In this document: positions 31,901 through 37,900 of the stretch, in pieces
Layout: every line of letters begins with the position of its first letter
Position numbering within the stretch: position 1 is the first letter of the stretch
Origin: Octopus vulgaris
Taxonomy: Eukaryota
Length of the DNA: 64,000 bases
Direction: 5' to 3'
Assembly: GCA_951406725.2 (NCBI GenBank)
Contig: OX597829.1
Span: 45,322,001 to 45,386,000 of the forward strand
The notes under the pieces: generated by a model
Told to the model about the DNA's origin: nothing
Seen by the model: the letters and a program-made list of their open reading frames with translations, nothing else
Database searches by the model: none
Translations under genes and position numbers: made by a program

Positions 31901-34900
31901 AACCTTTCATAGTGGCATCTCCAAACCTCTCTCTTTGCATCCTCATTTAGCGCAAGTGAACCATCATCCATGCGAACACATTTCTCTCCTACCTCATCAC
32001 GATTCTCTCTCACACACACTGTCTTGCAACACGAAATACTTCAAGTCTTTGGTCCTCATGGCGCAGAACATTGGCAAATTTTTTCTTATCTGCTTCCCCT
32101 CTGGCTAAATAAACCTGTCTCCTAGCTTCCCTTCTGGAAGTCTGAAACAATTCCCTGCTATCTCCGTTCTCCCAGTCCTTCCAAGCCTGTTTCTTTTGTC
32201 TAATAGCCCTGTCAACCACATTGTTCTACACCATGTTACCTTGGGTCGAGAGGGGACTTTGCACCATCCACAGATCTGGTCAATGGCCCTCAGCAGGTTG
32301 TCCCGTAGAAACCTCCAGTTGTCTTCCACATTATGTGATGCTATATCCCCTTCTATTTCATCAAAGGCTTCGAGTAATATGTCCCTAAATCTCTGCCCAT
32401 TTGCAGGATCTTTAAGCTTCCAGACCCTTCTCCTCCAAGCTGGTCTTCTTCTGGGCATCCATTCAGCCCTGATTCTGAAGTCGCTAACTACTAATCTACA
32501 TTCTTCGCCTGGGAAGGTTCTGGCATTTATAAGCAGCCCTCTTTCCCTTTTTCTGGCGAGGGTATAGTCAATTTGGCTAGTGTGTTTGCCAGAATGATGG
32601 GTGACTAGGTGACGGGCGGGTTTCCTCAAGTTGGTATTGCAAACCATATATATATATATAGTTAAATTTTCGTATAAAGTATGTTTTTAAGTATATTTCA
32701 CAATATATATACAGTATTAAGAAGTGCTCATTGCGAGCTAAATTGAAGGATAAAGTGCCTATGATGGTGCCATGTATAAAGCACCAGTATTGGTGTCACT
32801 TACGAAGCACCTGGTACACTCTGTAAAGTAGTTGGTGTCATAGGAACCTTGCTTGAACAGAACTGGAGTTTGGTGCAGCTCTCTGGCTTTCCAGCTCCTG
32901 TCAAACTGAATTCATGTGTTGAAACAAATCTCATCTTAAGAAGATCGCTACACCAATAAAAACACACAAACACACACACACACTGGTTCAATATAATTTC
33001 AGTATTGTTAGTCAATTGGTTAAATTTCTAACCAAGTAACTAACTGATCGTTTGTTAAATAAGTTGGTTAAGCAGTCAATCAATCGTTTGTCAGTCAAAG
33101 ACCTTTTGTCACTGTTTGCAACTTTTTTGGTGACTTTCCTCTCTTTCCCACAAAGTCTGTTCTGGAAAGGTGGCAAACAGTGATGAAAGGACTTTGGCAA
33201 ACAAACAACTGATTGATTGTTTAACCAATGCATTAAACAAATTATCAATTTTAATCAACTAACTAATAAAGAAGTGATACTGAATCAGTGAGTGTATGTT
33301 GTTATTATTGGCATAATGACCCTCCCAAAATTTAATTATACATTATGCACTTTATTGTGTTTTGTTATGGGCATGAGGCTCCTGTCCATGAAAAATAGTC
33401 TTGCATGAAGCTGGTCTGCAGTACCAAGAAAGGCAAGGACCTCTGGCTCAGGTAACATGTTTTCACATCTTCCAAGATCCAGCCCAACATTCTCTCCTAC
33501 TTCAGTTCCCTCCCAACATACTTTACACTAAACTGATCATTGCCATATTTGTTTAAAACCCTCTTACACAACTGGTTTCAATTAATTGTTGTATTAAAAT
33601 GTATATTTACCAAAATCTCTTTGAAACTAAACATTTTTTTCTCATTTTCATTTTTGTTTCAGAAGACCTAGCCTGTTGTGGAATGCCTTCGCAAAGGTAT
33701 TTTTTTTAATGTGTGTGTCTCTTCTCTTTCTCTCTCTCTCTTTCTCTCTCTCTCTCTCTTTCTCTCTCTCTCTCTTTCTCTCTCTTTCTCTCTCTCTCTC
33801 TCTTTTTCTCTCTCTCTCTCTCTCTCTCTCTCTCTCTCTCTCTCTCTCTTTTTCTCTCTCTCTCTCTCTCTCTCTCTCTCTCTCTCTCTCTCTCTCTCTC
33901 TCTCTCTCTCTCTCTCTCTCTCTCTCTCTCTCTCTCTCTCTCTTATCTGGCTGTCTGTGTGTTTCCCTAAAACTTGAGAGCTATACAACCAATTTCATTC
34001 AAATTTTACACATGCCTTACTTAGGGTCCATGTACTTTCATGGGCAAAAAAAAAATGTTCAACTTCTTGCCTAGAGCGAGCCCATAGCAATATCATATCT
34101 TCTCTACTATTTCAGTATTATGTGTTAAAAATGAAACAAAAAAAAACATTTCTCTATTTTATGTCAGATACTTTCACTTTAACAATAAAAATTAGAGATA
34201 ATAATAATTGAATTATATGTAGTAAGTAATAATTAAAATCAAACTAAAGTATAATATAATCGTAACATAAAAGTAAAAATAGCAATTGGTATAAAATTGC
34301 ATCAATGACTTGAACTTGAATAAGTGGTTTCACATGAATGGGAATAAATTAAAAATAAAATTAGCATACAGAAATGGAATAGTCCAGATGGAGGTGTGCA
34401 CATACCTTTTACCACGGCTTTTACATTAGATTATCTGCTAATTAGCTAGCATTAAGTATCTATATGATGTTTGGCTGTATGTAATGTCTGTTTTCTTGAA
34501 CAGACGCTTCTACTGAGTACTGCTGTTGGTTTATTTCTTACACATAAAGGACTCAACTGTGTACTGCTTTTTGATTCACCGTAAGGTTTGTTGTTATTAT
34601 TTCTGTTTAACTATTGTTATCACGTTTGTTAGTTCCTCGTAAGGGAAACGTTGTTGTGTTGCATTTGTTAAATAATTGTAAACTGTAACCCTCCCCCTTT
34701 GGGAGAAGGAGCTTTGGTTATTGTTTAAAAAGTGAATTGTGTCCCTGTTTGGGGAAATTGACAATATTTTCACCGTTTACACGGAAGCATTTTTGTTAGA
34801 ATGCCTTTGATAGAAAAAAGTCCAAAAATGAATTTCGCTGCAGCCGTCGGCGGGTGTGAACTCATTAAAATTTAAATGGAAGAACTACAAACCTATTTCA

Positions 34901-37900
34901 GATTGATCACCGACAAAGACGGTGAATCTAGGATAACACCACCAAACGAAATAAAAAATTAAATTAAAGAAAAGACTATTGTCTATAAAGTATACAATGT
35001 AGAGCAAAAAAAAAAGATTTGAACACCTGGAGGAAAGCACCATCGAAAAGTGTCTTGGTGTGACTATGAAAGATATCTAACAAGAAGCGGTAAATTCGCC
35101 ACAATAGAAGCAAAGTTTGAGTCAACAGGGCATGCAAGGGAGTACTTGACTCGAACCTTGCAAAGTGGAAATATTTTACCTTTACCTTTATATCTGGGAC
35201 GTAGGACGTCCTGGATAAAAATTAAAAATGTCCCCCCAGAATAGATGTAGGCTGGATTGTAGCCATACTTCTATACAAGAGGGAGGACAAGATACAATTG
35301 ATCGAAATTGCAAGAGACAGGCCTACAATTCCAGTGTGTTATATATTTTGAGTATTGTTATCACTAGCGATATCAAGATATAACTTTGTATTTTATGTGT
35401 AGATGTATATATATGTAGATGTACCTGTAATATGTACACATATATATACTCATATATACATGCACTAGCACTATGACCCGGCAACGACGGGTCATAATGC
35501 TAGTATATATATAAAGAGAAGAAGATAGAAACGGCTGCTTCCTTACATGTTGAAAAATAGATGCTTCAATGAAACATTTACAATTCACCCTGATATGGAA
35601 AGAGCTGTAAGCAGGCAAGACGAACAGAATGATTTTTTAAAAACTCCTGTGAGTTAATAGTGGACTATAGTTTCGGACTAAACTTACTAATTAAATAAAG
35701 TAATTTTAGAAAATTAACTTAATTTAAGTTTGTCAAGTATGGCCCTCTTCAGCACTATCTCTCCATATTTATAAAAAATATGAATTTTAAAAAAAATATT
35801 ACCTTATTCATCCACATCCATTTGAATTTTAAGGTATAAAATTATATACACTCACACACACACACACACACATATATATATATATATATATATATATGTA
35901 CGTATATCATCATCCTTGTTTAACGTCTGTTTTCCATGCTAGCATGGGTTGGACGGTTCAACTGGGATCTGGGAAGCCAGAAGGCTGCGCCAGGCCCAGT
36001 CTGATCTCCATTGCTGTTTGAGCAAGTGTGTTTTATCACAGTATCCAGCTAACCCCAATCTCTTGTAGTAAGTAAAGTTGGGTGAATGGAAACTGTGTGG
36101 AAGCCTGTTGATTAGCTTCGAACTGGGTGATGCACTGTGTTCTTGAGCAAAACACTTTTTTCATGTTGCTTTCTGATGACTTTGGCATCTGATGTGTGAC
36201 ATACTTGTGTACCTGTACAGGGCAATGTTGGTCTGATGGAGGGCATGAGGTAATGTTCAGTACAAACATTTGATTGCTATAAGCAAGTCTTCTGTATGGT
36301 TGCTCATCAAGAAATTTTGGAATCAATTTTCATGGACTCGAGAGACTCGTTAAAGTAATATACATGTGCAAGCCAGTACTTCAGTTGATTGAACAATGCT
36401 TATCATTGAACCCGTCAGAAAATCCATCACCACCACCACTGTCATCATCGTCATTGTCATCATTACTGTTATCATCATCATCACCATCATAAGTATCAAA
36501 TCTTTGGTCAGTGTATGGAATCACATTTGACTACTTGAAGATTTCTTGGGTTCTTAGACTAAGTTACATGCCTCATCCTTACATATGTTGCTTGTTTTTT
36601 GGTAGTTTTGGTATTCTATCCATGAAGGAAATGGTAAAATCCCAAGTTCTACTATCGAGTTTCACTTTTTTGTTTCTAATGTATATCCCTGTGTTTTATG
36701 TAAGAAATGACTCTGTACTTTTTAAATATTAGACTTTATTCTTTTTAATCTAGAAATCCTACAAGCCCGAGTAGCGATCTTTTGTGTTCCGAAGCTTGCA
36801 ATTCACACAGTTCCGAACATTGTCCCAGTTCTGAGAAAGATTCTGATCACTTTGATGAGATTAAGAAGGCAACTTCAGATGATAACATTGTTAGAGAATC
36901 AGAAACTCATTTGCTTTCCGACGAAGAAATTGCTTGGAGTGAAGAGGAGCTGTTATGTGAATCTGTTGTGGAAACTGCTTTAGTCAACGAGTCCATTGTT
37001 AATTCAACAGAAAATTCTTCGGCAATTCGAAGTAGTAATGAAAACATTGGAAATTCCAAGATTCAAAATAATCTCAAGGATACAGATCAACCTAGCTGCC
37101 AGAAAACGTGCCTAAGCAAAGGGAGAACTCCTTCGAAAATTCAGAAGGGAATTTGCTCTGAAAATCCATCTTCTGTTTCTGAAGATATGAATTTATCTGA
37201 TACTGACATTGACGAGATGCTTTCACAGTTACAGGAAACAGATTTTGTTTCGTCTGATGCGTCTGAAAGTACCGTGAATGTCAACTCTGAAACGCCTCCT
37301 CAGGACCCTGTTCTTTTAGACCTGCAACAAAACCATAACACTCGAGTAACAAGATCAATGGTTAAAAAAACAAATGTACAAGTTTTAGACAATTCAGACC
37401 AAGTTAATCAAAAGTCTTTAACAAAAAATAATAAAAACAGAACTAATGAAAGTGATACAGCGCTAAGAAAAGCGTACCTCCTTAGAAATTCGACCGTGCA
37501 ACAAACAGAAACTGGGGTCGGCGCTAAGGCATCGGTTCCAGTTAGCAACAATGCCCAGCAACACTATTTGTCTGCTCCTAAACGTAAGTTTCTCTCCAAG
37601 CATGTTCAAGTTTTGGATTTTGTTTTTCTTTTTTTTACTTGTTTTTTTTATTAATGTGTGTGTGTGTGTATGTTTGCTTGTAGCCTTATATTTGTTCCAT
37701 TCTAAACAAAACTGTCCGATGAACAGGAATGTGAAACTCTGAGTAACAGTTTTTGTGATATTTTGGTTGCTTTTTAATAAAGCATATTACTCTACCTTTG
37801 GTATTCGGGTACTATCTTTTCCACCTTGTTCCACGTTTATGTACTCACTCTGGTTTGTATGTGTGTATATATATATATCATCATCATCGTTTAACGTCTG

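Follow-up and report, generated by a model that had tools for sequence, protein, structure and literature searches.

A decayed 5′ piece of a Tx1-like LINE is carried by two copies of a non-autonomous Helitron in Octopus vulgaris

It is already known that Helitrons carry retroelements. According to part of the account of Thomas et al. 2014 (PMC4224331), retroposition into Helitrons with subsequent amplification is documented in bats, where Helibat, like the octopus Helitron described here, is a non-autonomous element that amplifies retro-derived cargo; composite capture is described there as well. The nested retrogenes in that part of the account are 5′-truncated and have a poly(A) and a target-site duplication (TSD), whereas the octopus cargo is a LINE 5′ end with neither tail nor TSD. 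Heli1Xen1 of Xenopus laevis (PMC12001565) resembles the octopus element in its TC start, TATATAAA-type left end, hairpin, and CTAG, and captures mainly 5′ ends. However, its cargo is host coding sequence, while the octopus cargo is a LINE piece; for the octopus Helitron, no RepHel partner was identified. Tx1-clade LINEs are found nested in non-autonomous DNA transposons and at times in each other, as are Tx1L in Tx1D, Tx1-Mar in Mariner-N4_AMi, and Tx1-9_AMi in Harbinger (PMC4494074). The targets in that study are piggyBac, Mariner, Harbinger, and LTR elements, and the word Helitron is absent from its main text; the octopus locus adds two sites, from which no preference is claimed. No report of Tx1 targeting of Helitrons was found in the literature searched. 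Insect Hel-2 type non-autonomous Helitrons (PMC4344730) also have a microsatellite, (CTGT)n, close to the 5′ end. In contrast, no subterminal inverted repeats (Helentron/DINE-type) were found in the octopus Helitron, whose two ends share no exact inverted match longer than a TA run of 11 nt.

As listed in Table 1, two copies of a canonical non-autonomous Helitron were found in the window, which is the whole stretch of 64,000 nucleotides analysed in this study. Copy A starts with TC at 4495, ends with a hairpin and CTAG at 10779, and is inserted as A/TC...CTAG/T without target duplication. The original prediction had placed the LINE piece in a Helitron, and the 3′ hairpin with CTAG of copy B and the intact 5′ TC end of copy A confirm this context. 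The two copies lie 24 kb apart and are 94% identical (54 of 970 columns differ); in the 5′ subterminal region, 16 of 433 ungapped columns differ. Their homology ends at the Helitron termini, with flank alignments that score only 22 and 16. A segmental duplication giving the two copies was rejected, as the flanks are unrelated. The 5′ terminus of copy B has been lost or has merged into a (TC)n run (33718-33943), and of its insertion site only the 3′ T is readable. Its terminator is the strongest among the 16 CTRR sites of the element (-15.0 versus -6.4 for the best other, in 45-nt windows). Copy B has no RepHel ORF, since its longest stop-free frames are just 77 and 81 aa. It lies in sense orientation within a likely host intron (33697-36753); for the host gene, Pfam was blank and Atlas gave low-grade leads only. 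A Helitron 24-mer had 0 matches in the genome contigs searched, and a plasmid search gave no match.

Table 1. Features of the two Helitron copies and of the LINE sequences inside them (window coordinates)
Feature	Position	Strand	Description
Helitron copy A	4495..10779	+	A/TCTTTATATATATAAAA...(GTCT)n...hairpin CTAG/T; ORF1 remnant at 4966-5049 and 10308-10594
Target-site duplication (12 bp), left copy	5038..5049	+	ACATGGAGGAAA
Near-complete Tx1-like LINE, 5246 bp	5050..10295	+	Inserted within the ORF1 remnant of copy A; ORF1 ATG 5268; several breaks
Target-site duplication (12 bp), right copy	10296..10307	+	
Non-autonomous Helitron copy B, ~1.56 kb	33946..35503	+	Alignment with copy A begins at 33946; 3′ hairpin + CTAG, then T
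Helitron 5′ subterminal region	33946..34392	+	Common to copy A 4525-4965; 93.6% over 450 nt
556 bp present in B, deleted from A	34393..34948	+	Includes target-like site, 5′UTR, and ORF1 start
Target-like site	34539..34552	+	TACACATAAAGGAC; immediately 5′ of the inferred LINE start; resembles the target of the young element, AACACATGGAGGAAA
Likely complete 5′UTR of donor Tx1-like element	34553..34800	+	Begins TCAA, same as intact element
Decayed ORF1, N-terminal ~175 codons	34801..35327	+	ATG 34801; truncated upstream of the zinc knuckle
Empty site in copy B	35025..35036	+	ACCTGGAGGAAA; equivalent of the position of the intact element in copy A
Non-LINE 3′ segment	35328..35471	+	Common to copy A 10595-10747
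Helitron terminator	35472..35503	+	9-bp-stem hairpin + CTAG, then T; -9.2 kcal/mol

It had been proposed that the piece in copy B is a decayed ORF1 colinear with a Tx1 ORF1, and every peptide on which this was based is present: NFAAAVGG (from ATG 34828), KEKTIVYKVYNV, EESTIEKCL, YLTRSGKFATIEAKFES, LPLYLGRRTSWIKIKNVPPE, DVGWIVAILL, and REDKIQLI. A second ATG lies upstream and in frame at 34801. The protein alignment is significant. A tblastn search of the window with the intact ORF1 (5336-6271) found the remnant with E=1e-12, and a frameshift-aware alignment of 34804-35306 to the same ORF1 scored 171 (identity 51/166), a score reached in none of 100 dinucleotide shuffles (maximum 43); the reverse complement scored 34 and the reversed sequence 32. 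At the DNA level, 0 of 500 shuffles reached the match, and 105 of 153 fetched ORF1 relatives gave tblastn matches to the region. The lesions are TAA codons at 34873 and 34960 and frameshifts near 35023, 35070, and 35243. The ORF1 homology stops at about 35306-35330; for the 70 relatives that extend at least 25 residues beyond, the alignments end at 35241-35382, mostly at 35300-35330. No ORF1 C-terminus, ORF2, RT domain, or 3′UTR was found beyond the break in copy B, and a leftover Tx1 3′UTR downstream of ORF1 was rejected (chance level, 292/500 shuffles).

On the phylogenetic tree, the remnant belongs to a lineage apart from the intact Tx1-like family and forms a 100/99 clade with four Logan proteins. 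Named ORF1 relatives come from Octopus sinensis, O. vulgaris, O. bimaculoides, and Argonauta hians, and the closest relatives are at 50-57% across partial spans. These comparisons support the remnant as a decayed ORF1 that is homologous to the ORF1 of the group of the intact element and derives from a different Tx1-like lineage, in agreement with the original prediction of a different family. As for a donor ORF1 or further Helitron-borne copies, a 58-aa piece compared with longer proteins had 0 matches among 7 candidates, a profile of the remnant pieces and five relatives, run on 2478 candidates, found nothing beyond 3 of the members from which it was built, and a pattern search of the genome contigs gave 206 stretches with 0 confirmed ORF1 relatives.

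The remnant in copy A is interrupted by a younger element. This element was inserted by target-primed reverse transcription (TPRT) with target-site duplication, and the equivalent site in copy B is empty. The element (5050-10295) is presumably a Tx1, a label taken from the first reading of the DNA and from motifs. Its ORF2 has APE (PF03372, E=3e-14), RT (PF00078, E=7e-31), and zf-RVT (PF13966, E=2e-9) domains in Pfam; its ORF1 has a weak PF00098 match (E=0.048) short of the curated cut-off and has Atlas look-alikes with zf-CCHC. The nearest solved RT is that of LINE-1 ORF2p (E=1.9e-35), followed by R2 (1e-25), a comparison that assigns the element to the L1/Tx1 group and no finer. The TAA at 34960 and the frameshift at about 35070 are common to copies A and B. 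Thus, the Helitron spread an already dead LINE piece, since copy A carries the same remnant with these two lesions; the predicted amplification with the Helitron took place at least once. Copy A also lacks 556 bp that are present in copy B. A loss in copy A is the simpler reading, because ORF1 reads through the right breakpoint of this sequence.

Where does the LINE piece begin? When alignments were anchored at the ATG with a free left end, 10 of the 12 settings placed the LINE 5′ end at 34553 and the other 2 placed it at 34426. None of the 2220 real ATG controls equalled the score of 56.5, but the margin is thin (control maximum 56.0). Unanchored local tests of the 5′UTR were weak (151, 497, and 818 of 2000 shuffles), as were short ATG-anchored UTR windows (57, 123, 88, 25, and 31 of 1000, in a run where the intact ATG was misplaced by one base). 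The piece thus appears to start at the true 5′ end of the LINE, at 34553. The preceding TACACATAAAGGAC matches AACACATGGAGGAAA at 10 of 15 positions, a level reached at 918 of 117380 window positions (0.8%). It is the sole such locus within 33975-34800, and the resemblance was spotted post hoc. An snRNA or tRNA target was not seen at gathering level, since an Rfam scan of the window gave 0 matches.

The original prediction concluded from the 5′-only shape that the Helitron had captured the piece at the DNA level. That the piece is Helitron cargo stands, while its entry by DNA-level capture is not established, as insertion and deletion give the same anatomy. A 5′-only piece does not imply capture, because a full-length TPRT insertion followed by an internal deletion leaves the same piece, and copy A displays each of these two steps. 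I give roughly even odds (about 0.5) to a full-length retro-insertion into an ancestral Helitron, followed by deletion, as the origin of the piece. An older Tx1-like family would have inserted at full length into the Helitron by TPRT at an ACACATrrAGGA-like site. A deletion that took the rest of ORF1, ORF2, the 3′UTR, and the 3′ target copy would then have reduced the insert to 775 bp, and the stop and the frameshift would have arisen in ORF1. The shortened Helitron may have been amplified by rolling-circle transposition with RepHel supplied in trans; in the last step, copy A lost 556 bp, and the younger Tx1-like element entered its remnant. This order is favoured by a left junction that resembles a genuine full-length LINE junction, and by copy A, which has undergone both TPRT into the Helitron and internal DNA loss. 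Tx1-like insertion into the Helitron is not demonstrated for the remnant, because there is no surviving 3′ target copy, LINE tail, or 3′UTR, and no empty-site Helitron without the piece was found.

Alternatively, the Helitron may have taken up host DNA from around the start of a genomic full-length Tx1, with the flank, the 5′UTR, and some of ORF1, and then amplified it. This is a serious possibility, though short of an even chance. A single event suffices for it, neither TSD nor tail remains, and Helitrons commonly capture DNA, with a bias to 5′ ends in Xenopus (17 of 19 captures; PMC12001565). The working rule in part of PMC4224331 that no TSD means capture would score the remnant as captured. 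The lesions common to both copies suit capture of an already decayed fossil. Filler-DNA repair and composite end-bypass transposition were considered as routes. A simple end-bypass, in which transposition stops at a cryptic signal, is a misfit, as the element ends in a canonical terminator ~145 nt past the LINE sequence. Neither a bypassed internal terminator (hairpin+CTRR) nor another Helitron 5′ end where ORF1 breaks off was found, which favours retro-insertion and deletion over capture; the 3′ segment does not look like the start of a Helitron (for copy A, 890 and 207 of 2000 shuffles). No Tx1-like donor locus was found in the protein-set searches, which also counts against capture. Capture of the host DNA surrounding a full-length copy would equally be expected to give a genuine LINE 5′ junction, and retro-insertion with deletion takes two events where capture takes one. 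A longer Helitron-borne donor Tx1 starting at 34553 with a ACATAAAGGAC duplication would count against DNA capture.

The 3′ segment (35328-35471) had no significant match to a Tx1 3′UTR, an ORF1 continuation, or a Helitron 5′ end. A second Tx1 5′UTR (111-841 of 2000 against the intact UTR) and a mini-Helitron were also tried for this segment, both at chance level. A 12-bp direct repeat at 34612 and 35353 (16/2000 and 42/2000 shuffles) was rejected as a TSD, as its left copy lies within the inferred 5′UTR. It counts against retro-insertion with deletion, which leaves it unaccounted for; under capture, it could be a template-switch scar. It also bears on a third route, in which a prematurely ended Tx1 transcript was retrotransposed directly to give a 5′-only insert. 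The apparent start at the LINE 5′ end would suit this route, but position 35327 shows neither a poly(A) or repeat tail nor a duplication, and this sole long direct repeat has its left copy off the junction; the route is highly improbable.

Is the piece retained for a function, as a promoter, a small-RNA decoy, or a short protein? Copy B keeps the 5′UTR, in sense in the likely host intron, and pN/pS is 0.61, below 1. However, this ratio is not significant (Fisher p=0.24), substitutions are spread 11/10/8 across codon positions, the whole 5′UTR is missing from copy A, and both copies have the stop and the frameshift. The donor ORF1 is 31% identical to the neighbouring family, probably too distant for sequence-based silencing. 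Retention for function is therefore improbable, and the piece is presumably a passenger. The notion of a promoter that helps Helitrons transpose was dropped, as it is unsupported in the passages of PMC5876387 consulted.

Transposon nesting is seen here in a clean, ordered form, and the Helitron has kept the 5′ end of a Tx1-like lineage whose intact copies were looked for and not found. For repeat annotation, the locus is a warning; the Helitron family would be partly masked as L1-Tx1, inflating the apparent number of full-length Tx1 5′ ends. A 5′-only LINE piece is no proof of DNA capture. A cephalopod Tx1 lineage might target an ACACATrrAGGA-like motif and repeatedly parasitise this Helitron family, an old family having landed on the motif in the Helitron and its ORF1 remnant having supplied a fresh motif that the Helitron multiplied and on which the younger family landed. 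This is unlikely; if true, the LINE would be targeting a Helitron at a site derived from, and propagated with, its own dead relative. Two similar Tx1-like target sites were seen, but a SINE that has the Tx1 tail in common has an unrelated target. The locus would matter more if the target resemblance holds genome-wide, and target choice would then be testable by junction counts.

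Self-comparison of the window revealed a second copy of the Helitron. This copy (copy A) runs from TCTTTATATATATAAAA, preceded by A, through (GTCT)n to a hairpin and CTAG, followed by T; copy B, the Helitron of the original prediction, has the same terminator and has lost its 5′ tip in a (TC)n run. The flanks of the two copies are unrelated to each other, and the copies differ at 54 of 970 columns (JC 0.058). On the time scale of PMC13282606, where JC 0.09 equals 25 My, half of this pairwise distance suggests a rough figure of about 8 My. No RepHel is encoded in copy B, the copy tested, nor in copy A, which measures 1027 bp without its LINE. 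TA repeats directly follow both copies (10780-10818 for A, 35504-35513 for B), suggesting that the Helitron inserted beside (TA)n runs. Bacterial, archaeal, and plasmid collections gave no match. Copy B likely lies in sense within an intron (33697-36753) of a host gene, whose protein received no name from Pfam or Atlas. An imperfect palindrome of about 210 bp (33042-33250, 69% self-match), possibly a MITE, lies 700 bp 5′ of copy B.

Coordinates of the main features in the window
Feature	Position	Strand	Remarks
Helitron copy A	4495-10779	+	
Helitron copy B	33946-35503	+	
Intact Tx1-like element	5050-10295	+	inside copy A
ORF1 of the intact element	5268-6644	+	probable start ATG 5268
ORF1 remnant	34801-35327		in copy B
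Likely host-gene exons	33663-33696 and 36754-37583	+	in-phase join as Q-R-N-P
SINE-like element	59496-59728	+	10-bp duplication GGTTGCCTTT

It had been predicted that copy B carries a decayed ORF1 piece from a different Tx1 family. Every quoted peptide was found in the sequence, and the ORF1 homology was confirmed by tblastn (E=1e-12). A frameshift-aware alignment of the remnant with ORF1 (34804-35306, 51/166 identities) scored 171, against a best score of 43 in 100 dinucleotide shuffles. An in-frame ATG at 34801 lies upstream of the predicted one at 34828. The homology stops at about 35306-35330, 5′ of the zinc knuckle, and no further ORF1, ORF2, or 3′UTR sequence was found downstream of the break. 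In an ORF1 tree of 37 rows (the hits spanning at least 110 remnant positions plus the relatives P0081 and P0049, the other hits among the 105 being omitted), the remnant clusters with four proteins at 100/99, apart from the intact family; its assignment to a different family stands. A search of protein sets for the donor Tx1 family found none. The factual observations on the remnant thus hold, and the fragment is indeed present in another Helitron copy.

The intact element is located within the ORF1 remnant of copy A and is bordered on both sides by a 12-bp duplication, ACATGGAGGAAA; its site is empty in copy B. The domains and the nearest solved RT place this element in the L1/Tx1 group, within which "Tx1" serves as a provisional label. 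Its ORF1, which likely runs from ATG 5268 to 6644, is interrupted twice, by a shift within the 5318-5408 repeat and by a stop at 6272, and one relative (P0002) covers both parts. Searched against 5793 candidates, the frame at 5336-6271 gave 6 hits to proteins of Octopus sinensis and O. vulgaris (the best with 93% over 59% of the query), which makes an octopus the most likely source of the window. A profile search gave 601 relatives at E≤0.001, 150 of them listed; the organisms named among the 20 looked up were O. bimaculoides, O. sinensis, and Argonauta hians. Another relative, the predicted protein P0025 (547 aa, O. bimaculoides), has a cysteine-rich, repeat-like first part and joins the ORF1 family from about residue 364, and is possibly a gene-model fusion.

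In addition, a 556-bp deletion has removed from copy A the sequence corresponding to 34393-34948 of copy B. Two lesions, a stop (34960) and a frameshift (near 35070), occur in both copies; thus, the piece was dead before the copies diverged. The frameshifts near 35023 and 35243 occur only in copy B. The substitutions between the copies in the remnant are distributed as 11/10/8 over the codon positions, with 9 synonymous and 20 non-synonymous changes in 114 codons (pN/pS 0.61, p=0.24). The promoter or small-RNA role originally suggested for the piece is hypothetical.

How did the piece enter the Helitron? With the intact 5′UTR anchored at the ATG and its left end free, the donor LINE start was placed at 34553 in 10 of 12 alignment settings, TCAA standing opposite TCAA. 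The junction score exceeded those of all 2220 real ATG controls, by a narrow gap (best control 56.0 vs 56.5), and unanchored local tests of the 5′UTR match were weak. The 15 bases 5′ of 34553 share 10 matches with the target of the intact element, which was noticed post hoc; 0.8% of the positions in the window do as well, none of them elsewhere in the Helitron 5′ zone. The piece looks like the beginning of a full-length TPRT insertion with a DNA-level break within ORF1, an anatomy compatible both with insertion into the Helitron followed by deletion and with capture from a host locus. A full-length Tx1-like element may have retro-inserted into the Helitron and then been truncated by deletion (probability about 0.5). 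This route is slightly favoured because copy A displays each of the two steps, because the terminator is canonical and lies outside the LINE sequence, and because neither a bypassed terminator inside the Helitron nor a second Helitron 5′ end at the ORF1 break was found. DNA-level capture from a host locus, the origin originally proposed for the 5′-only piece, is a serious possibility short of even odds: a single event suffices, the missing TSD is consistent with it, and it agrees with the 5′ bias reported in Xenopus (PMC12001565). The 5′-only anatomy stands, and capture as its origin is not secured, insertion with deletion being also compatible. An exact 12-bp direct repeat, TATTGTTATCAC (34612-34623 and 35353-35364), lies inside a looser similarity of about 30 bp; it is somewhat above chance, arising in 16/2000 shuffles for narrower zones and 42/2000 for wider ones.

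The remnant-bearing Helitron is real and well supported, and is a further case of a known type, the non-autonomous Helitron with retroelement cargo. Bat Helitrons carry retrotransposons, with four retropositions into Helitrons that were then amplified, and composite capture is also described (PMC4224331). End-bypass and filler DNA are treated in PMC6544945, and PMC4494074 describes Tx1 families that sit inside piggyBac, Mariner, Harbinger, and LTR elements; further sources were PMC4344730, PMC3288121, PMC4758252, and PMC5876387. PMC13282606 reports 80 L1-Tx1 and 84 Helitron families, Helitrons making up 1.02% of O. vulgaris, and its repeat library might include this Helitron already. Literature searches listed no paper whose title or abstract opening reports a chimera of Helitron and Tx1 in octopus or Helitrons as targets of Tx1, with most subscription journals and Repbase outside the scope.

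The boldest reading, a Tx1 lineage that targets Helitrons, is improbable. Speaking against a fixed target motif, the SINE-like element, which shares the Tx1 3′ tail, bears a duplication unrelated to the target of the intact element. Its last 60 nt or so align with the intact element's 3′ end (36 nt, 86%, E=2e-5), and it is likely a Tx1-partner SINE; a partial relative lies at 28518-28598. The window also contains a second LINE (15501-18835, minus strand), in which an ORF precedes an endonuclease-RT frame of 949 aa. An RT fragment related to it lies at about 2168-3279 (minus strand), and in a tandem array at 47785-52989 a 247-bp unit is repeated in 21 copies with 99% matches.
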